Below are positions 1 to 11,085 of a DNA stretch of 64,000 nt, piece by piece. Every line of letters starts with the position of its first letter. Position 1 is the first letter of the stretch. The notes under the pieces were generated by a model. That model was not told the origin of the DNA, ran no database searches, and worked only from the letters and a program-made list of their open reading frames with translations. Origin of the DNA: Dictyostelium discoideum (taxonomy: Eukaryota); assembly GCA_000004695.1 (NCBI GenBank), contig CM000150.2, forward strand, positions 4,480,001-4,544,000, given 5' to 3'. The translations under genes were made by a program, and so were the position numbers.

Positions 1-414
1 AACAATTAATTTCGGATCGAAATTATAGAAACTATCTCTATAGTTTTGTCTCTTTTTCAATACAGTTATCCACGATAAACCAGCTTGTTGAGCCTCTAAA
101 CAAATCTTTTCAAATAATCTTTGAGAATCACGATTCTCTTTACCCCATTCATTATCATGATAATGAATATACTCTTCATCTTTAGTTAAACTTATCCAAA
201 AACATCTCTTTTTACTATCTAATGGTTTAAATCCTTTTTTTTCAATTGGTGCTTTTAATAAATCTTCACCTCCCTCTTCTACTTTTTTATTTTTAATTTT
301 ATTATTTTTTATATTTGTTGTTTTTTTTTTGACTACTGGAGAATTTACTATTATTGGGGTAGTAGTGGTGGTAGTTGATCTTTGTCTAGTGATAATTCTA
401 GCTGTTGATGACAT
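1..414 (-). CDS. DNA-3-methyladenine glycosylase I (Tag)-like protein, N-terminal part; gene continues past window start
   Basis: Minus-strand ATG at 414, reading frame open to position 1 (138 codons). Translation: MSSTARIITRQRSTTTTTTP...KKRCFWISLTKDEEYIHYHDNEWGKENRDSQRLFEKICLEAQQAGLSWITVLKKRQNYRDSFYNFDPKLIV. This matches the Tag family core (C-x-W, YHDxEWG, LFExLxLExxQAGLSW, ILxKRxxYRxAFxxFDP). Not in the supplied ORF track because it is truncated by the window edge. Confidence 0.6.
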   Translation of the reverse strand, partial: MSSTARIITRQRSTTTTTTPIIVNSPVVKKKTTNIKNNKIKNKKVEEGGEDLLKAPIEKKGFKPLDSKKRCFWISLTKDEEYIHYHDNEWGKENRDSQRLFEKICLEAQQAGLSWITVLKKRQNYRDSFYNFDPKLIV

Positions 415-1556
415 AATATAATTATTTGAAGTTGGTATTGAAAATAAATGTTTAAAGGTTGTAAAAGGATATTTAAACATGAAAGTTTTGAATGAAATAA
501 TTAATTTAAAAAAAAAGAAAAAAAAAAAGTGTTATTTATTTCAAAAAAAAAAATTAAAATTAAAATTAAAAATTAAAAATAAAAATAAAAATAAAAATAA
601 AGTAAAAACATTTTTTCATTTTTCCTGGAAATCAACCAAACGGTTTTTATTTTTAAAAAAAAGAAAATATCTCACATTCTCGTTTATCTTCGTATTAATT
701 ACCAAATCAATTACACACAAACTAGAACTTTTTTTTTTTTTTAAAAAAAAAGAAAAACACAGGATTAAAAAATAAAAATAAAATAAATAAATTAAAAAAA
801 AAAAAAACAAAAAAAAATTAAATAAAATAATATATAAAAATAGAATAAAATTAGTTATAAAAAAAAAAAAAAAAAAAAAGATTTTTAAAATTATTTACAC
901 ATGTAAAAAAAAAAAAAAAAAAAAAAAGTAAAATTTTGATTTTATAAAAATTAGTTGTGGAAAAAGTTTTATGATTATAACCATATATTGATTTTTTTTT
1001 CTATTTATATATTCGATTTAAAAAAAAAAAAAAATTTAATCACCAAAAGAAATTCATTAACTTAAAACATCTGAGCACTTTTTTTTTAAAAAATACATAT
1101 TTTAATTTTTCCCTTATATAATTATTACCACTTCACTTTGTAAATTATTATTATAACCATATATAAATTTCAATATTAACGATTTTTGTTTTTTCTATAT
1201 TTTTTTTTTTTTTTTTTAAAAAAAATTTCACAAAAAAGGAAATTTAGTGATGTGGGGGTTACATCTAATTTTAAAAACATATGGAGTGGAGATTTTCAAA
1301 AAAAAAAAAAAAAACAAAAATTTAATATTGCCAAAGTTAGTTTTTTCTAGGCAATGTTTGTACAAGGTGTCATTTGTTGATGTAATATTAAAAAGACTTA
1401 ATTGGTTATATTTATTACTTGTACTCAAATTTAAAAAATAAATTAAATTATATGTATTGATTTTCACTATAAATAAAAGTTTTTTTTTTTTTCATTTTTC
1501 ATTAAAATAATATTTTAAAAAAAAAATAAATAAAAACTAATACTATAAAAAGAAAA

Positions 1557-1909
1557 ATGTCAATTTTTAGTAAGTTTTTTTTTTTTTTTTAAAAAATAAA
1601 AAAAAATTATACACATATATTTATATAAAACTATATTTATTAATAAATTTTTTTTTTTATTTTATATTTTTTTTAGAATCAATTACTTCCTTATCAGTCT
1701 CAAAATCTGTTTCAAAATCATCAATTGGCCAAAGTGGAAATTTTGGAGGTGCACAAACCTCAAACCAAATAACTGGAAATGGTGTTGTTGCAGGTTCAAA
1801 AAAAAGTGCTAGTGGTGTTTATTATCATCATGAAGAATCAAAATCATCTACCACATTTGTTAGTGGAAGTTCTTCTGAAAATGAATTTGTTGGTGCATGG
1901 GGACATTAG
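1557..1909 (+). CDS. small Ser-rich protein, hssA/2C/7E-like; exons 1557-1569 and 1677-1909
   Basis: The micro-exon ATG TCA ATT TTT A ends at a GTAAGT donor at 1570. Acceptor is ttttag at 1671-1676. The spliced product is MSIFK-SITSLSVSKSVSKSSIGQSGNFGGAQTSNQITGNGVVAGSKKSASGVYYHHEESKSSTTFVSGSSSENEFVGAWGH*, in frame (231 nt second exon). A TATA-like tactataaaaag sits 15 nt upstream of the ATG. Confidence 0.4.
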
Positions 1910-2258
1910 AATATTTAATTTTTATAAACTCTTACTTTTATGTGAAAGTTTTTTAAAATGTAAAGTTACCTAAAGCTAATATTACCATATATAAATAAAT
2001 AAGTAAAATTTTTTTTTTCAAAGTAATGACCTAAAATGTGTGTGAGGGTTTTATTTATTTTTTTTATTTTATAAAGTAAATATGTGTCTTTTTTTAAATA
2101 AAAATATTAAAATACATTAATGTATAATATTTCAAACAATTTTAGCTAGTATAAATTAAATTTTTTTTATTTTTTTTTTTATTTATCAAATATTTAATTT
2201 AAATTAACAAATAAAATATTAAAGAAATAGAAATAAAAATAAAAAAATAAAATTTAAA

Positions 2259-2595
2259 ATGACACTTTTTAGTATTTATATTTTAATTTGTTCTTAATAT
2301 TATTTTTAAATATATTGGTATTAATATATATTTTTTTATTTTTTTTTTTTTTATTTTAATTATAATAGATTCAATTTCATCAATTTCAAATTCAAATGGT
2401 ATCTCTAAAAAAAGTTTAATTGTTAATGTTGATAGTAATACAAATGAAAATGGTGGTAATAGTGTTTCATGGTTAGGTGGATTCGATAGTTGTGGTGGTT
2501 GTGGTGGTTGTGGTGGATTCAATGGTTGTGGTAGTTCAAATTTAAATATTATAAATGTTGATATTGATATTGGTCGTCGTCGTAGATGCTGTTAA
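2259..2595 (+). CDS. hssA/2C/7E-family small Gly/Cys-rich protein; exons 2259-2271 and 2369-2595
   Basis: It has the same micro-exon architecture: ATG ACA CTT TTT A|GTATTT donor, tataatag acceptor at 2363-2368. Product: [79 protein letters not shown]. The MTxF start, SISSIS and the GGCGGCGG core are the family signature as I remember it. Confidence 0.5.
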
Positions 2596-2999
2596 TCACC
2601 ATTTATAAATAAATATTTTCAATTTTTATAAATATTTATCTTAATTTTAAATTTCAAATAAATAAAACAACCTAAATATTTAAATTGTTTAGTTTTATTT
2701 TTATTTTTAAGTTTTTGGCGAGTATACTTTTTTTCTTCAATGGGTTCATATTTCATTTTTTTTTTTTTTTTTTTTTTTTTTTATTGCAAAATAAAAAATT
2801 AACACCGTTTAAAAATAGAAATAAAAATTACAATAAAAAAAAAAAAATTACCCAAATTAATTTTAAAATTTTAAATAATCCTTTTTTTTTAACAAAAAAA
2901 AAAAAATTTAAGCGCCAAAATAAATCCATTAAATTAAAATAAAATTTTTTTTTCATTTTTTTTTCATTTTTTTATTTTTTTTATAATTTTTAAAAGGAA

Positions 3000-4724
3000 A
3001 TGAGAAAAAAAATCAAAATTGAATATGAGGAAGAAGATAATGAAAATAATAATAATTTAAGTGATATTACAGAAGATGAAGATAATAGTGATGAAGATTA
3101 TGTTGAAAGAAAGAAAAAACCAACAACTAAAAAAACCAATTCTAAAGTTAAAAAGAATAATACAACCACCACTACTACTACAACCAAAACTTCAATTAAA
3201 GTTAAAGATGAATCAATTGAATCAATTGAATTAAAACCATGTCAACATAGTTTAAAATTACATAAATTTAAAAATAAACAAGAGATTCAAGAGATTAGAG
3301 AATCAATGTTAGGATGGTATGAAAAGAATAAAAGAGATTTACCATGGAGAAAGCATGATAATTCACTTGACGAGAATGTTATAGCTTATAGAGTTTGGGT
3401 ATCAGAGATAATGTTACAACAAACTAGAGTGGCCACTGTAATTGAATACTTTAATAAATGGATTGAAAAATGGCCAACTATCAATGACCTCGCATCTACA
3501 ACAATTGAAGAAGTCAATAAAGTTTGGTCAGGCCTTGGTTATTATAGACGTGCTAAAAACCTATGGTTAGGTTCAAAATATGTAGTTGACAATTTCAATT
3601 CTAAGATTCCATCAGATGTTAAATCATTATTAGAAATCAATGGTATTGGTCCATATACAGCTGGTGCAATTTCATCTATTGCTTTCAATAAACCTGTACC
3701 ATTAGTTGATGGAAATGTAATTAGAGTGTTAAGTCGTGTTAGATCAATTGGTGCAAATCCAAAACTATCTTCAACAGTTAAATTATTTTGGGAATTAGGT
3801 AATGATTTAGTTGAATCTGTTGAAAATCCTTGTAATTTCAATCAATCCCTAATGGAATTGGGTGCCACCATTTGTTCTGTTCAATCACCACAATGTAAAC
3901 AATGTCCAATTCAATCAAATTGTCAAGCATATCAACAAGAGAAACAATTTATAAAACCTGAACCAAAAAATTCAATTTCAAAATTTTTTCAACCAAAAAA
4001 TAATAATAATACAAATGATATAGAATCATCATCATCATCAACAAAACCAATAGTAACATTAAATTTAACTGATATTTGTAAAATTTGTCAAAGTTTTGAA
4101 GATTCTGATGGTCCAACTGAAAGTGTTTGTAGATATCCAAAAAAAGTTTTAAAAACAAAAGCTAGAGATGAAAATGTAAACGTATTTTTAATTCATCAAA
4201 CAAAAAGTAATTTATTTTTATTAACTCAACGTCCTGATACTGGTTTATTAGCATCATTATTTGAAGCACCATCAATTATTGAAGAACTTCAATCAAAAAG
4301 AAAAATTAAAAAAGATAAAGAAGATGATAATAGTGAAGAAGAAGAAGAAGAAAATGATAAAAGTGAAGAAAGTGATGATGATGATGATGAAAAGAATTCT
4401 AAAAAAAGGAAAAAACCAACAACAAAGAAAACAACAAATAAAATAACAAAAGAATTTATAGAAAAAGAAATTTTAAAGAAATTATTTAAATCATCAACAG
4501 ATATAACAATTAAATCTGTTAAATCTATTGGAACAGTTTTACATAAATTCTCACATATTAATCAAACATTAACAGTTTATGATTGTCCATGTGATTTTAA
4601 AAAAGAACCAATTCCAAATGATAAATCTAAAACTAAAAATATTTGTTGGTTAAAACTTGATGAAATTCAATCATCAGTTGGTGTTTCAAAACAAATGTTA
4701 AAATGTTTTGATTTAATAAAATAA
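3000..4724 (+). CDS. myh: A/G-specific adenine DNA glycosylase (MutY/MUTYH homolog)
   Basis: A 574-aa ORF. It has an HhH-GPD domain (LLEINGIGPYTAGAISSIAFNKPVPLVDGNVIRVLSRV) and an Endo III-type 4Fe-4S cluster loop (CSVQSPQCKQCPIQSNC). The C-terminal region is NUDIX-like. Charged low-complexity inserts are typical of this genome. The symbol is from memory of the Dictyostelium mutY-homolog name and is unverified. Confidence 0.85.
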   Translation: MRKKIKIEYEEEDNENNNNLSDITEDEDNSDEDYVERKKKPTTKKTNSKVKKNNTTTTTTTTKTSIKVKDESIESIELKPCQHSLKLHKFKNKQEIQEIRESMLGWYEKNKRDLPWRKHDNSLDENVIAYRVWVSEIMLQQTRVATVIEYFNKWIEKWPTINDLASTTIEEVNKVWSGLGYYRRAKNLWLGSKYVVDNFNSKIPSDVKSLLEINGIGPYTAGAISSIAFNKPVPLVDGNVIRVLSRVRSIGANPKLSSTVKLFWELGNDLVESVENPCNFNQSLMELGATICSVQSPQCKQCPIQSNCQAYQQEKQFIKPEPKNSISKFFQPKNNNNTNDIESSSSSTKPIVTLNLTDICKICQSFEDSDGPTESVCRYPKKVLKTKARDENVNVFLIHQTKSNLFLLTQRPDTGLLASLFEAPSIIEELQSKRKIKKDKEDDNSEEEEEENDKSEESDDDDDEKNSKKRKKPTTKKTTNKITKEFIEKEILKKLFKSSTDITIKSVKSIGTVLHKFSHINQTLTVYDCPCDFKKEPIPNDKSKTKNICWLKLDEIQSSVGVSKQMLKCFDLIK

Positions 4725-4789
4725 AATTAATCTTTTTTTTATTATTTATTTATTTTATTTTTTATTTTTTATTTTTTATTTTTTATTTT

Positions 4790-5548
4790 TTATTTTAATT
4801 TTACTGATACAGCTTGTCTACCTAATTGTCTCCATCTTTTTAAAAATAAATTTTTAGGATATTTTTCAATTTTACCTGTATGTGGATCAGTGATTATTAC
4901 AACATTTTCAATCTCATCAAATCCTGATAAGGTTGCACAATGTTCAGGTGATACCCAATAAAGTGGTTGTGATTGATTTTTAATATCAAACCATTCATCA
5001 GTAATTTTTGGTTCTTTTAATTCTAATGTCATCCAAATTATAATTGGTGCGTTATTAAATATCATATGATTTTTTAAAATTTCAAAATCTTCTTCACCAT
5101 TATTATTATTATTATCATCATTTTCAAAATAATTTAATCTTGATTCAATATAATCTTTAGTTTCATTTTGTTTAATTAAATATTTAAATTTATTTATATT
5201 TGTTTGTGTTAAATCAATTACTTCAATATGTTGATTTTCATTATCTTGATATATAACTTCTTTTATTAAATTATAAATTGGTTTATGAAATATACCAAAT
5301 GATTCTTTTGAATAAGGTGATCCAATAAATGCACGATATGGATTACCACAAAAATTTGTAATTGGGTCTGGGTCTTGTTCTTTTATAATCTTATCTGCTA
5401 ATGATTCATTTGTAATTTTATATGTACTAATATTTAAATTATGACTTTTAATTAATGAATTTAATAATATTGATGTTGCTGTAACTTCACAACCAGTTGG
5501 TAATAAAGGATATTGATTTTGTGCTTTTGTTTCAATTTCAACTATCAT
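4790..5548 (-). CDS. peptidase C39-like (YvpB-type papain-fold) domain protein
   Basis: A 252-aa ORF. It has an N-terminal Q(x6)GCEVTATSILLNSL motif (Gln plus catalytic Cys as in Peptidase_C39_2), a central DPDPITNFCGNPYRAFIGSPY, and a C-terminal HCATLSGFDEIENVVIITDPHTGKIEKY (His plus the 'vvltGyD...v.DP..G' block). Otherwise a bacterial-looking domain. Confidence 0.5.
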   Translation of the reverse strand: MIVEIETKAQNQYPLLPTGCEVTATSILLNSLIKSHNLNISTYKITNESLADKIIKEQDPDPITNFCGNPYRAFIGSPYSKESFGIFHKPIYNLIKEVIYQDNENQHIEVIDLTQTNINKFKYLIKQNETKDYIESRLNYFENDDNNNNNGEEDFEILKNHMIFNNAPIIIWMTLELKEPKITDEWFDIKNQSQPLYWVSPEHCATLSGFDEIENVVIITDPHTGKIEKYPKNLFLKRWRQLGRQAVSVKLK

Positions 5549-5668: not shown

Positions 5669-6508
5669 ATGCAAGAAAATGATAAACTATTCTTTAAAGT
5701 TTGGAGAAACATAACAATATTAAATGAAATAATTTATCATTTAAGATTATATAGAGATAATTATAAAAAAGAATTTAAAAATTTAAAAGAGTTTAATTTT
5801 TATCAGTTTAGAGACTATATTTCAGAATTAGTTTTAGTTGATAGTAATGATGATGATTTAAATAATAATGATGGTGATAATAATAATGATGATGATTTAA
5901 ATTATTTAAAAAATTCAATTACATCATTAACTTTTAATGATAAATTTAATGAACAATTAAATAAAAGTAATTTCAGTTTAAAGAATTCTTCAATAAAAAC
6001 TTTAAAATTTGGTAAAATGTATAATAAAAAACTAGATTATGATTTATTACCAAATGGTTTAACAAGTTTAATATTTAATAAATTATATGATCAACCAATT
6101 TTACCAAATTATATACCATCTTCAGTAACAAATTTAGAGAATCCATATTTTTCAAAGCAAGAGGATTTGAATAAAGGTATTATACCATCATCTGTTAAAA
6201 TATTAAAATTTGATGATTCATTTAATTTTCCATTAGAAAATGGTTTTATACCTAAAAATGTTACAGATTTAACATTTGGTATTGCATTTAATATGATATT
6301 AAAAAAAGGTGATATTCCATTTGGTTGTAAATCAATTACATTTGGAATTTGTTATAATCAACCTTTAATACCATTTGAAAGTATACCTTTATCTGTTGTT
6401 AATGTTAATTTTGGTTTATGTTTTTCTCAACCAATTAAACCAGGTGATATTCAAAATAGTTTAGCAATAATAAAATTTAGTTTAAATAGGAAAATTTTAA
6501 ATAAATGA
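5669..6508 (+). CDS. FNIP-repeat protein
   Basis: A 279-aa ORF with iterated LTFGxxFNQPIxxxxIPxSVxxLxFG units (LTSLIFNKLYDQPILPNYIPSSVTNL; LKFDDSFNFPLENGFIPKNVTDLTFGIAFNMILKKGDIPFGCKSITFGICYNQPLIPFESIPLSVVNVNFGLCFSQPIKPGDI). This matches the Dictyostelium FNIP repeat. Confidence 0.75.
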   Translation: MQENDKLFFKVWRNITILNEIIYHLRLYRDNYKKEFKNLKEFNFYQFRDYISELVLVDSNDDDLNNNDGDNNNDDDLNYLKNSITSLTFNDKFNEQLNKSNFSLKNSSIKTLKFGKMYNKKLDYDLLPNGLTSLIFNKLYDQPILPNYIPSSVTNLENPYFSKQEDLNKGIIPSSVKILKFDDSFNFPLENGFIPKNVTDLTFGIAFNMILKKGDIPFGCKSITFGICYNQPLIPFESIPLSVVNVNFGLCFSQPIKPGDIQNSLAIIKFSLNRKILNK

Positions 6509-6596: not shown

Positions 6597-9500
6597 TTAT
6601 CTTCTTGGTTTTCTTGTTATATAAACAAATGTAATAACCATAAGAGTATTAAATATCCAGAAACAAATAATAAGAGCTAAATTTCTCCATCTATTATCAA
6701 ATGACCAACCAAGTGTATTATAATATTCTTCACCATTGTTGTAAAGACAATAACCACATTTACTTTCATCACCTTCATTTATTGCTTCAACATAACCTGT
6801 TAATGGTTCTGAAATTGGGAAATATTGTTTACATGTCACACCATTTACAGCTTCTGGATTTGTAAAATGAGTGAAATCTTCTGATGTACACTTTACATCG
6901 GTATGTTTTAATACATTTGTAACAATACCTTCCATAAAGTAACGACATGGGTTTAAATGATACACCCATCCTCTCCAAAAGGTTGGAATTGACGATGGTA
7001 TTACCATTACTCCACAGAAAAGAAATAGGAAAACAATTAACAATGGAATGAGTGTATGTGCTAAAAACATGTTGAAACAAATTGCAGCTACAGCTTGACC
7101 GAAACTAACACAGAAATAGAGGAATAAAATGAAAATGAACCAAAAATAAAAATTAATATCATTGTATTCCGTATTTAAACCAGCTGTCCAAAAAGAGCAA
7201 AAGAAGAAAATTGTACCTGAAACTGTAATGAATGGTAATTCTACAACCACAATGGAAATTGCAAATGGGAACCAAGAATAAAATTTCGAAGCAAAATCTC
7301 TTTTAAAGTATTCTTTTTGCATAATGAATTGTGGAAGTACAACGAAAATTAATAAGATTCCAAGAATGAGTGCTTCAAAAATAAAGAATACACGTTGATT
7401 CATATCTGAACTTGATCCTTGTAATGACCAAAAAGTAAAACCAATAATTAAACCTGCAAGAGCTGATTGAATGAATGAACCATACGTATAGAATGGATCT
7501 CTCCACCAAATTAAATTTAAACGTTTATAAACTTCAATAGTTTGATACCATACTGATGTTGCAAATTCTCTAGGTTTACCATGGTCCTCGGTTGATGATG
7601 GTCCTGCTGCTTCCAATGCTGCTAATTCACGCTCAATCTCTTGTAATTCTGGTGATTGTTTCCAAGTTTCTGGCCAATTAACATCACTTTTACCATGTAC
7701 ACCTGCACCAGTTGCTTCTAAAATATATTCTGCTGGATTTTCACTTTCAGTACATGGACGAACACCATATCTTTCGAAATAAGATGTTAAAGTTTTTGAT
7801 CTTTCACCAATATCACCAAAGTAAACAGTTTTACCACCTTTTGCTAATAAAAGAATACGATCAAAATGTTCAAATAATACTGAAGAAGGTTGATGAATTG
7901 TACAAACTAATGGCATACCAGCATCTGCTAATTTACGAATAAATTTAACAATGTTATATGATGATTGAGCATCTAAACCTGATGTTGGTTCATCAAGGAA
8001 AAGAATATGTGGTTTTGCAACCAATTCTACACCAATTGTTAATCTTTTTCTTTCTTCAACGGAAATACCAACACCAGTTTCTAATGTACCAATTAAAGCA
8101 TCACCTAAATGTTTCATTTCCATCATTTCTAAAACATGTTCAACATAATCAAACTTTTCTTCTAATGAAACTGAAGGTTCTTGACGTAACTTTGCAGAGA
8201 AACGTAATGCTTCTCTTACGGTTAAACCTGGATTATGAACATCCATTTGTTCTACATAACCGGTAATACGTTCAAAATCAATTTCTAATGGTTTACCATT
8301 AAGGAAACATTTACCTTGAACTTCACCCATTGTTTTTCTTTTTGCTAATACATCGAGTAATGTTGTTTTACCAGCACCTGATGAACCCATTAATGCTGTC
8401 ATTTGACCTGGTTTAATCCAACCTTCAACATTATCTAATAGTAATCTTTTTCCACCTTTTACTGGTACAGTATAATTAATATTTTGCCAAGTGAAAATAC
8501 CACCTCTCATTTTTAAAGTATCTTTCATTTTACTTGTAGCATTTGCAACTATTTGATTTTGTTTCTTTTCTTCCTCAGCATCATTCATTTTTGGAGCTTT
8601 ACCTTTTTTATAAACTTTATGACTATAACCTCCACCAGTCCAATCGAAATATTCCATTGCAAACATATTCATAGCGGTAAATAGTACCCACCAAAGATAA
8701 GTGATGAAAACATTTTGAGTAAGATCATCTGATCTAAAGTGTAAATACTGATCCAAATAATCTTTACCTTCAACACTTAAAATACCTTCAACAGCACCAG
8801 GCGATGCACAAACTCTATAATCATTGTCGTATCTTGTAGGATTTTTTGGATCAAATGGAATTGCTGTATCATGACAATCAAATGATAAATCACCAAATTC
8901 ATTTGCCATAAGTGCTTTAAAAGCATAACTGAACGGATTTGCCCAATAAAACCAAGCAAACCATGGATGCATTTTTGGTTTTGGAATTGTATAACCACAA
9001 TATGTAATCATAAAGATAAGAATTACATTCATTACATTTTGACTAATGTAAAGTGATGGTGAGAAATTACCAAAGACACGGAAAAGATTTGTTGTTGCCA
9101 ATGTTGCACCTACTAATGTAAAACAGAAAATAAAGAATTTCCCAGCATTATATTGTAAACCAAACATAAAGTAAACTACAATTGAGAATAAAAATACTTG
9201 TATCATCGTTAAGGGTATATCAGTTACAATTTGTGCAATATGTAAAGCTGATGGACGATACATAGCGTAAGAACGTTGCTTTTGTAAAATACGACGACCA
9301 TACATAGTAAGTGGTAGTTCGGCTTCACTAAGGAAAGCATTGAATAGAATAGCTGAAAATATAGCACCACCTCTTGTAAATAAACCAGGAATTGTTTTTT
9401 CCATTTGAAAGAAAATTGAACCATAAACAAATGATTGAGTAAATACTGAAAGATAACGTGAAATCAATGAGAATTTATCACCCCAAATAATTTGAGAATT

Positions 9501-11085
9501 TCTAACGATTAATGCTTTGACTTGAGTTATATATGAAGTTGTATAAATTGATCTCTTTGGTGTAGTTCTACTTTTTTCAGCTTTAACTTCTTGAATGAAA
9601 TCAACTGCTGGTTGTTCAATTTCAATCTTTCTTTCATATTCTTTTTGTTCCTCTAACATATCTCTATACATTGAAGAGTTTCTCCAAGCAGCTTCAAAAT
9701 CGGCAGAAGTTTCTGGAACACGACCTTCAAATCCTTGTCTAATAATACGTTCTTGTGGATTTGTAACACCTGTCAAAAAATCTGGTGTTGATTTTCTTGG
9801 TTCGCAATCGAATCCTAAATCTATAAAATATTGTTTTGCTTTATTGCCAGGTCCAAAATAAATTAATCTACCTTTTTCAATGATTGCGACATTATCAAAT
9901 AAATTATAGATTGAATCTGATGCTTGATAAAATGATGCGATTGTTGTCTTATCTAATGTATCTGACATGATACGAATTGATTTTGCATAATCTAATGCAC
10001 TTGCTGCATCAAGACCACGAGTTGAACAATCATAACATGTAATTGATGCTGATGATACCATTGCTTCTGTAATTGTTAATCTTTTACGTTCACCACCTGA
10101 TAAACCTCTAATAAATTCATTACCAACAATCTTAAAAAAAAAAATAATTAATATCAATTAATAAATTAATTTTATTAAAAACTAAATACTTACAGTATCA
10201 GCTTGATGAACAATACCAAACATTCCTAATAATAAATCAAATATTTTTTGTCTATATGTACGTTTCTTTTCATCTGGCAAACGATTATGAATTGTTTTGC
10301 ATTTTAATGCGAAATCTAAAGTCTGACGAACTGTTAAAGTTGGATGATGAGTATCCTCTTCTGGTGTATAAATTGATTCACCTTGATAACGTTTCCATTC
10401 TTTCGCTGGGATACCACCATATTTAATATCACCTTTAACTTCAACATATGATCCTCTTTGATTTGATATTAAACGCAATAATGTCTATTGTAGTGAAAAT
10501 AAACATTATTAATATTATTTCTAAAAAATATATAAACACATATAAATTTATAATATTTACCGAACAACCAGAACCAGGACGACCTAATACTAATAACATT
10601 CCACCATCTCTATTGAATAAAGTAATATCATGAAGAATATCAAAAGTACTACCTTTCTCTTTCCAAGTTGATGGTTTAAACAAATTGAAAAAACTAATGA
10701 ATGGAGTTGACATATCGGCAATGACGGATTGATCAGCACCTCTACCAACAACTGTTAAATTTCTAATTGAAACACCCATTTTCTTTGGTTTTTGACCATT
10801 TCCTAATGCCATACGTTGAGAATTTTCAAAGTATCTTCTTAATTTAAAATCTTCATCATTTTCATCATGATTATTTTCAGCATCATGACCTGCCAAATAT
10901 TGTTTTGAATCGATTTCCAATTCTCTTTCGACATTTTTAAATTGATTTTCACTCTTTTGAATATCTGGTGAATCTGGTGGTGATGATCCATCACCAACAG
11001 GATTATCATAATTTGGAGGTGTATTAATATCTAAATTACTCCCACCTTCTTGAAGAGCAATTTCTCTTAATTCATATTCTTCCAT
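6597..11085 (-). CDS. ABC transporter G family, full-size PDR-type (NBD-TMD)2, paralog 1; exons 11085-10561, 10484-10194, 10130-6597
   Basis: NBD1 Walker A GRPGSGCS|TLL is split by intron 10485-10560 (gtaaat...aatag). The junction ...HQADT|[17 protein letters not shown] is split by intron 10131-10193 (gtaagt...ttttaag). It is followed by a 1186-aa uninterrupted ORF carrying NBD2 Walker [16 protein letters not shown], signature [12 protein letters not shown], Walker [13 protein letters not shown], and two 6-TM domains. Start is [12 protein letters not shown] at 11085. Confidence 0.9.

Follow-up and report, generated by a model that had tools for sequence, protein, structure and literature searches.

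How did two genes of bacterial type come to lie on either side of a MutY homologue at the left end of a 64,000-nucleotide stretch of Dictyostelium discoideum DNA (contig CM000150.2, positions 4,480,001 to 4,544,000; hereafter the window)? One of them, cut by the left edge of the window, encodes a homologue of Tag (3-methyladenine DNA glycosylase I), and the other encodes a stand-alone C39-like protein of the Peptidase_C39_2 family, YvpB type. A sequence-only reading of positions 1-5548 had taken both for resident genes and old horizontal acquisitions, and had singled out the presence of two base-excision-repair glycosylases within 5 kb. Our analysis indicates that the window, which is from strain AX4, probably holds two functional resident genes of separate bacterial ancestry, with an ordinary MUTYH gene lodged between them. 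The observations behind this account concern what each gene is, which residues it conserves, the protein fold, synteny, selection and the nearest relatives.

Identity of the two bacterial-type genes and of the gene between them

The translation of positions 1-480 of the minus strand was 100% identical to residues 1-160 of a 290-residue AX4 protein (P0352), so the locus is that of D. discoideum AX4 and its Tag gene is already annotated, as a DNA-3-methyladenine glycosylase I. PF03352 (Adenine_glyco) matched positions 1-414 of the minus strand at E = 6e-25 (88.6 bits, cut-off 25) and is also present in the full-length Tag orthologues. TIGR00624 matched the same segment at E = 2.7e-26, with 92 bits against a full-length cut-off of 232.5 that is beyond the reach of a partial sequence. 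The profile searches proposed by the sequence-only reading were thus clearly positive for Tag, as they were for the C39-like gene (below). Its assignment of the fragment to the Tag family stands, on both profiles and on the AX4 identity, but its claim of the full set of core motifs was too strong: the PF03352 match takes in the N-terminal third of the Tag domain (3-63 of 177 profile positions), and only the first ~70 residues of that domain lie in the window, after a 90-residue basic, low-complexity N-terminal extension. The annotated start of the gene also lies earlier than had been read, at an ATG at position 480 rather than at the ATG at 414, both of which are in frame.

The roles of Cys4, Tyr16, His17, Glu38 and Trp46 in Escherichia coli Tag are known from the Tag structures 1LMZ, 1P7M and 2OFI. 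Within the window, the dictyostelid protein has the zinc-snap residues Cys93 and His108 and the pocket residues Tyr107, Glu129 and Trp136 (AX4 numbering). These three pocket residues are conserved with respect to Tyr16, Glu38 and Trp46 of 1LMZ and are invariant in four dictyostelid sequences. The C-terminal zinc ligands (NDHCKDC) lie outside the window and are present in the full AX4 protein and its orthologues, so the remainder of the gene, which had been left for recovery upstream, is accounted for. With E. coli Cys4, His17, His175 and Cys179 as the reference, all four zinc-snap ligands are matched. Tag is predicted to be a monofunctional 3-methyladenine DNA glycosylase of the helix-hairpin-helix/zinc-snap type, which would excise alkylated purines as the first step of base-excision repair. 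In the D. discoideum clade the first ~65-67 residues of the protein (positions 283-480) are free of acidic residues and rich in Lys, Arg, Thr and Ser, and comparable N-terminal extensions are found in all dictyostelid Tags. The extension and the Lys-rich stretches may serve as organelle (mitochondrial) and/or nuclear targeting signals, possibly with alternative starts; the long basic, acid-free extension and the Lys-rich stretches would have been gained after acquisition of the gene.

For the C39-like gene, PF13529 (Peptidase_C39_2) matched positions 4790-5548 of the minus strand at E = 6.4e-19 (69.4 bits, cut-off 24), in two stretches split by an insert. This agrees with the Peptidase_C39_2/YvpB-like signature recognised from the sequence alone, and the candidate catalytic residues Gln12, Cys20, His203 and Asp221 are intact; the same four are invariant in 26 homologues. 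The insert, a helical segment of ~50 residues at residues ~113-165, is specific to dictyostelids. No signal peptide was detected in the protein. Its AlphaFold model is confident (predicted local distance difference test, pLDDT, 92.3; predicted template modelling score, pTM, 0.91) and has a papain-like fold with the conserved Gln/Cys/His/Asp set. An exact look-up of the window's protein returned no record, and orthologues are labelled "Peptidase C39-like domain-containing protein" in UniRef. We consider the product a putative cytosolic papain-fold cysteine hydrolase of the YvpB/3ERV subfamily with a Gln-Cys-His-Asp active site, for which cleavage of a peptide or isopeptide bond is the most likely activity. 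The helical insert would have been gained later, as would introns in some species. A role as a classical bacteriocin-processing C39 peptidase (PF03412) was considered and rejected; there was no sign of a double-glycine leader substrate.

The MutY homologue between the two genes, also recognised in the sequence-only reading, scored 294.8 bits with TIGR01084 (mutY), above the equivalog-level cut-off of 286.5. It has an HhH-GPD domain (PF00730), an iron-sulfur (Fe-S) motif C-x6-C-x2-C-x5-C and a C-terminal NUDIX_4 domain (PF14815) broken by an acidic low-complexity insert. Its best matches in the PDB were mammalian MUTYH (4e-81) versus bacterial MutY (1e-58), and by these sequence comparisons it is an ordinary eukaryotic MUTYH-type gene.

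Both genes are resident, and their position beside MutY is recent

Tag and the C39-like gene are resident in the host genome. This conclusion is based on synteny conserved in four species, large scaffolds, eukaryotic neighbours, AT-rich codons and purifying selection. The GC content at third codon positions is 0.15 for Tag and 0.055 for the C39-like gene, and 0.057-0.148 in neighbouring genes. Ratios of nonsynonymous to synonymous substitution (dN/dS) are 0.02-0.13 for the Tag domain, 0.29-0.41 for the C39-like gene and 0.30 for MutY; both bacterial-type genes are under purifying selection. The view that these are resident genes with host-like AT-rich codon usage is thus borne out by codon composition, synteny and dN/dS. 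Contamination was rejected on the grounds of synteny, host-like codon usage and eukaryotic neighbours.

D. citrinum and D. firmibasis keep the gene order ABCG-FNIP-C39-MutY-Tag. No gene separates the C39-like gene from Tag in D. purpureum, where the two lie 1 kb apart on the same strand and are followed by a gene for a protein of ~1200 residues and a subtilase (S8) gene; MutY is absent from this locus. In P. violaceum, the C39-like gene adjoins the orthologous ~1200-residue gene across a 172-bp spacer (L006 5737-5908) with no Tag remnant. The Tag site is thus cleanly filled in D. purpureum (L003 10837-12941) versus empty in P. violaceum. No Tag was found within 10 kb of the C39-like gene in T. 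lacteum, H. album, A. subglobosum or C. fasciculata. The Tag of A. subglobosum is on a separate scaffold (1.38 Mb) from its C39-like gene, among bZIP, NOT2 and Tctex-1 genes. From these arrangements, the adjacency of the C39-like gene and Tag would have arisen in the group-4 ancestor, and only afterwards, in the D. discoideum/citrinum/firmibasis lineage, would a block with MutY and two small genes have been inserted there.

Of the loci compared, only those of D. discoideum, D. citrinum and D. firmibasis have MutY placed between the C39-like gene and Tag. Since MutY is missing from the D. purpureum locus and is of the MUTYH type, the glycosylase pairing reflects a rearrangement in one lineage, incidental in nature, and is no conserved cluster. 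The significance attached to two repair glycosylases within 5 kb therefore falls away; a selected Tag-MutY repair cluster was rejected for the same two reasons.

Nearest relatives of the C39-like gene

Each of the four dictyostelid groups has orthologues of the C39-like gene. When 185,579 bacterial and archaeal species genomes were scanned, 375 bacterial C39-like loci came up; the best 80 were all from Bacillota, with the soil genus Tumebacillus foremost (36-40% identity). In a distance-based neighbour-joining (NJ) tree (50 sequences, 192 columns, 200 bootstraps, top-hit-biased sample), the dictyostelid proteins were monophyletic at 100% and fell inside a Tumebacillus-type clade at 81%, and branching within the dictyostelid clade roughly tracked the species groups. 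Horizontal gene transfer (HGT) from bacteria is well supported for this gene by its sequence relationships. The gene would derive from a Bacillota (Tumebacillus-like) lineage and would have been present in the last common ancestor of Dictyostelia, possibly earlier. Operon context in bacteria was not conserved between Tumebacillus species (opine dehydrogenase and EamA versus XPB helicase) and gave no functional hint.

The nearest outgroups of the dictyostelid clade were two sequences, P0135 (the closest) and P0133. P0135 comes from the Logan assemblies DRR586367, SRR12225014 and DRR586362 (L091-L093), where it adjoins a PARP16-like gene (ARTD15_N and PARP) in DNA of 56-65% GC. It has an insert at the position of the dictyostelid insert and shares the motifs GCEVTA and WMTLELKEP with dictyostelids, which suggests that its source is another eukaryotic carrier. 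P0133 is on a compact, intronless contig of 33% GC (L090 1-8225, JGI metagenome IMG 3300062347), with a kinesin-14-like motor, an Ank/OGFOD2-like protein, an MFS transporter and an adenylate kinase-mRNA capping enzyme fusion as neighbours; its source resembles a giant virus or a eukaryote of compact genome. Among eukaryote-like genomes, the family is not strictly confined to dictyostelids. A search of IMG/VR gave only distant C39-like relatives, at 21-24% identity. The transfer from bacteria is old, and it may predate Dictyostelia or have come by way of another eukaryote or a giant virus.

Nearest relatives of Tag

An exhaustive Tag search gave 5,949 cluster representatives of the family. A profile of four dictyostelid Tags retrieved those of D. 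discoideum, D. citrinum, D. firmibasis, D. purpureum, Synstelium polycarpum and Acytostelium subglobosum. The next named matches among the best 120 were exclusively Gammaproteobacteria (Orbaceae, Pasteurellaceae, Budviciaceae and Enterobacteriaceae), bar one moth double-Tag protein, and no other amoebozoan appeared among these 120. Over 180 columns, the mean identity of dictyostelid Tags was 56% to named gammaproteobacterial Tags, 44% to other eukaryote-type Tags (Bathycoccus, a chytrid entry and others) and 41% to non-gammaproteobacterial representatives. The two dictyostelid subclades were 57% identical to each other. A single-sequence, word-indexed search gave 120 gammaproteobacterial Tags and missed dictyostelid orthologues of 91-100% identity in the same collection, and was not relied on alone.

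In a distance-based NJ tree of 73 sequences (300 bootstraps, top-hit-biased sample), the six dictyostelids formed one clade (51%) inside the gammaproteobacterial cluster, in which Synstelium and Acytostelium grouped at 86% against group 4. Synstelium clusters with Acytosteliaceae genera in 18S trees (PMC11857562), and the split in the Tag clade is consistent with the species tree. The Tag phylogeny is weakly resolved, and HGT from Gammaproteobacteria is therefore the best reading for Tag: reasonably supported by the sequence comparisons, though not rigorously proven. The catalytic domain would be gammaproteobacterial in type, near Enterobacterales, Pasteurellales and Orbales. Dictyostelids would have acquired the gene one or more times: prior to the divergence of their two major branches, with later losses, or twice independently.

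The phylogenies that the sequence-only reading proposed thus came out unevenly, with the C39-like proteins in a Tumebacillus-type clade at 81% and Tag placed in the gammaproteobacterial cluster with weak support. Its suggestion of old horizontal acquisitions holds in that the nearest relatives of both genes are bacterial and the C39-like clade is nested with support; it is weaker for Tag, whose tree is poorly supported (51-57%), and the two donors differ.

The moth protein among the Tag matches (P0351, 'Aphomia sociella', on a 14-Mb contig) is 387 residues long and has two tandem Tag domains that resemble those of AT-rich bacteria. Its high score with the dictyostelid profile is due only to the duplication. 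It could represent a bacterial-to-insect transfer or assembly contamination.

Route, number and independence of the transfers

The direction and number of transfers, like the enzymatic activities and protein targeting discussed above, are what we infer from these observations, and several points weigh against the account given so far. Both nearest outgroups of the C39-like clade are on eukaryote-like or giant-virus-like contigs, so the direct donor was perhaps not a bacterium and the recipient may be older than Dictyostelia. Moreover, our literature search found no functional study of YvpB and no characterised YvpB-type member. Passage of the C39-like gene through another eukaryote or a giant virus on its way to dictyostelids, or its entry into an older amoebozoan ancestor, is a possibility to which we give appreciable, if minority, weight: the neighbours of P0135 and P0133 are non-bacterial, and P0135 shares its insert position and motifs with the dictyostelid proteins. 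However, the contigs are short (2-8 kb), IMG/VR has only distant relatives, and the sister relations have bootstrap values of 82-88% in an NJ tree only. A broader proposal, which we regard as speculative and rather improbable, is that the C39-like proteins are an unrecognised bacterial-derived family that has reached several unrelated eukaryote-like or giant-virus genomes: those of dictyostelids, of the GC-rich eukaryote in which the PARP16-like gene is the neighbour, and the AT-rich, compact one with the kinesin and the capping enzyme. Bacterivorous amoebae would then have kept it over hundreds of millions of years to do a cytosolic job such as cleaving a bacterial or ubiquitin-like conjugate, and Tag would have come into group 4 more recently, by a transfer of its own that landed right next to the C39-like gene, the older of the two foreign genes.

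For Tag, the key nodes are weak: dictyostelid monophyly has 51%, the grouping of Gammaproteobacteria and dictyostelids against Bathycoccus 57%, and deeper nodes less than 25%. The tree was sampled without plant, fungal or other amoebozoan Tags, and AT-rich donors (Gilliamella, Pasteurellaceae) may attract AT-rich Dictyostelium through amino-acid composition. The absence of Tag in H. album, C. fasciculata, T. lacteum and P. violaceum means absence among the best 120 matches only, with an empty syntenic slot just in P. violaceum. Finally, a synapomorphy search found no residue that is common to all dictyostelid Tags yet rare in gammaproteobacterial ones; a single old gain with at least three to four losses is therefore inseparable from two gains. 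The empty P. violaceum slot and the unrelated Acytostelium locus fit either scenario. Two gains from similar gammaproteobacterial donors would be a variant of the best explanation and would not contradict it; we think this variant somewhat unlikely. One gain would fall in the group-4 ancestor, once it had separated from P. violaceum, and would have landed in the stretch from the C39-like gene to the 1200-residue gene; the other would belong to the Acytostelium/Synstelium lineage. Such a history would accommodate the lack of any remnant in P. violaceum, the unrelated position of the A. subglobosum gene, the missing T. lacteum, H. album and C. fasciculata Tags among the best 120 matches, the lack of shared derived residues together with 51% monophyly, a LIRNRLKL motif common to group 4 and Gilliamella, and subclades that are no more alike (57%) than each is to gammaproteobacterial Tags (56-60%). 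On the other side, the NJ tree gives a single dictyostelid clade that divides internally as the species tree does, an N-terminal extension is present on every dictyostelid Tag, and two hits from one donor group are less parsimonious in the number of transfers.

Vertical descent of Tag from the last eukaryotic common ancestor or an organelle ancestor, with repeated loss, would instead attribute the gammaproteobacterial likeness to slow evolution and AT-driven composition. Tags are known in plants, and our comparison included further eukaryotic ones (Bathycoccus, a related ENA sequence and the chytrid entry); the patchy dictyostelid distribution shows that losses occur, and the weakness of the deep nodes leaves room for such a history. 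We nonetheless judge it improbable, as dictyostelid Tags are 12-15 percentage points nearer to those of Enterobacterales, Pasteurellales and Orbales than to any other eukaryote-type or non-gammaproteobacterial Tag, and no other amoebozoan was among the best 120 profile matches. This closeness includes the GC-neutral Enterobacter and Budvicia (50-61%), so composition alone is insufficient. The close spacing of the genes, with the C39-like gene and Tag 1 kb apart on one strand in D. purpureum and Tag and MutY 2.5 kb apart in the window, might also suggest that Tag and the C39-like gene arrived on one bacterial fragment, or that Tag and MutY form a selected repair cluster. Either is very hard to credit. 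The donors are Bacillota for the C39-like gene and Gammaproteobacteria for Tag, none of the 80 best bacterial C39-like loci has a Tag within 6 kb, P. violaceum, T. lacteum, H. album, A. subglobosum and C. fasciculata have the C39-like gene with no Tag beside it, the two genes are on different scaffolds in A. subglobosum, and a Tag-MutY cluster has no counterpart at the D. purpureum locus. Co-transfer was rejected on the different donor phyla, the lack of a bacterial locus with both genes among the best 80, and the lack of linkage outside group 4. Tag and the C39-like gene would have been taken up independently of each other, at different times and from donors in different phyla.

Gene content of the locus

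Positions 1-5548 hold five genes: Tag, two small genes, MutY and the C39-like gene (Table 1). The region is strongly AT-rich, with 12-34% GC per 500-bp window.

Table 1. Features at the left end of the window, with positions counted from its first nucleotide
Feature	Position	Strand	Description	Basis or remark
Tag, 5' part	1..480	-	codons 1-160 of 290	gene continues past left window edge
Tag, visible key residues	73..204	-	Cys93 = 202-204; His108 = 157-159; Glu129 = 94-96; Trp136 = 73-75	alignment to E. coli Tag
Small two-exon gene	1557..1909	+	81 aa, Ser/Gly-rich, MSIFKSITS...; first exon 13 nt	read from sequence
Small two-exon gene	2259..2595	+	78 aa, MTLFNSISS..., CGGCGGCGG stretch, C-terminus RRRRCC; first exon 13 nt	read from sequence
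MutY/MUTYH homologue	3000..4724	+	574 aa, single exon	TIGR01084, PF00730 and PF14815 matches
C39-like gene (stand-alone Peptidase_C39_2, YvpB-type)	4790..5548	-	252 aa, single exon	PF13529 match
C39-like catalytic candidate codons		-	Gln12 = 5513-5515; Cys20 = 5489-5491; His203 = 4940-4942; Asp221 = 4886-4888	
FNIP-repeat protein	5669..6508	+	279 aa	PF05725, E = 1.8e-32; context only
ABC-G (PDR-type) transporter	6597-10157	-	large open reading frame	comes after FNIP gene; further ABC-G genes beyond

Both small spliced genes between Tag and MutY had been passed over in the sequence-only reading. Their products are rich in Ser, Gly and Cys, and we take them to resemble the HssA/2C/7E (HssA/B-like) small proteins. 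The gene at 1557-1909 had a weak match to PF05710 ('Coiled', E = 0.022), under the cut-off, and that at 2259-2595 had no match in the Pfam profile search. D. firmibasis has a matching pair of small genes at the corresponding place (L002 13470-14434). On the other flank, the FNIP gene adjoins the C39-like gene on its upstream side, an arrangement conserved within the D. discoideum clade (L001, L002). ABC-G genes are also present at the orthologous D. citrinum and D. firmibasis loci, as a tandem pair in D. firmibasis.

Significance

Dictyostelium serves as a standard model in studies of DNA repair and of interactions between amoebae and bacteria, and the locus adds two cases to a short list of bacterial-derived Dictyostelium genes. 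HGT into bacterivorous amoebae is expected; these are modest additional candidates that leave the general picture unchanged. The contrast between filled Tag sites (D. purpureum, D. discoideum) and the empty one (P. violaceum) is unusually clean. The glycosylase clustering is not conserved and is not to be read as a functional cluster. With a member in every dictyostelid group and a confident structural model, the C39-like protein is a tractable target for knockout and biochemistry.

Comparison with known systems

Sixteen candidates for transfer from bacteria to Dictyostelium have been published (Eichinger 2005; Sucgang 2011, Table 2, PMC3188802). Adenine_glyco and Peptidase_C39_2 are both missing from that list (Sucgang et al. 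2011, Table 2), and in an incomplete literature collection we found no earlier report of a bacterial origin of Tag or C39_2 in Dictyostelium. The phenomenon is alike, namely bacterial-type domains in resident dictyostelid genes with D. purpureum orthologues. The list requires absence from plants, animals and fungi, which would exclude Tag, and the C39-like gene predates group 4, because it is found in all four groups.

The closest known counterparts of the C39-like protein are the putative C39-like peptidase of Bacillus anthracis (3ERV) and Bacillus subtilis YvpB, which are likewise stand-alone single domains with Gln, Cys, His and Asp at equal positions. Identity to 3ERV is just 27%, and the ~50-residue helical insert is a dictyostelid feature. 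YvpB has been reported with a Sec signal peptide (PMC5142396), unlike the dictyostelid proteins; the nearest bacterial homologues, Tumebacillus-type proteins of ~200 residues, lack signal peptides as the dictyostelid ones do. Classical C39 peptidases (PCAT1, ComA and LahT; PF03412) belong to a different Pfam family and are fused to ABC transporters, which the C39-like protein is not, and its structural match to them is far weaker than to 3ERV.

Mammalian MUTYH (7EF9, 8FAY, 3N5N) and the MutY homologue have in common the HhH-GPD domain, the Fe-S Cys motif and a NUDIX-like C-terminal domain; the low-complexity N-terminal insert and the acidic inter-domain insert are Dictyostelium-specific. For Tag, the reference is the enzyme of E. 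coli and Salmonella (1LMZ, 1P7M, 2OFI), to which the D. citrinum and D. firmibasis orthologues align end to end, at ~55% identity (E = 8e-55 for that of D. citrinum). Domain length is equal at ~185 residues, and the zinc-snap Cys/His...His/Cys ligands and the 3-methyladenine pocket residues Tyr, Glu and Trp are kept in dictyostelid Tags. Unlike the enterobacterial enzymes, the dictyostelid proteins have an extension of 90-140 residues in eukaryotic style, basic and rich in Thr, Asn and Lys, and those of Synstelium and Acytostelium also have Lys-rich C-terminal tails. The dictyostelid gene is nuclear with AT-rich codons.

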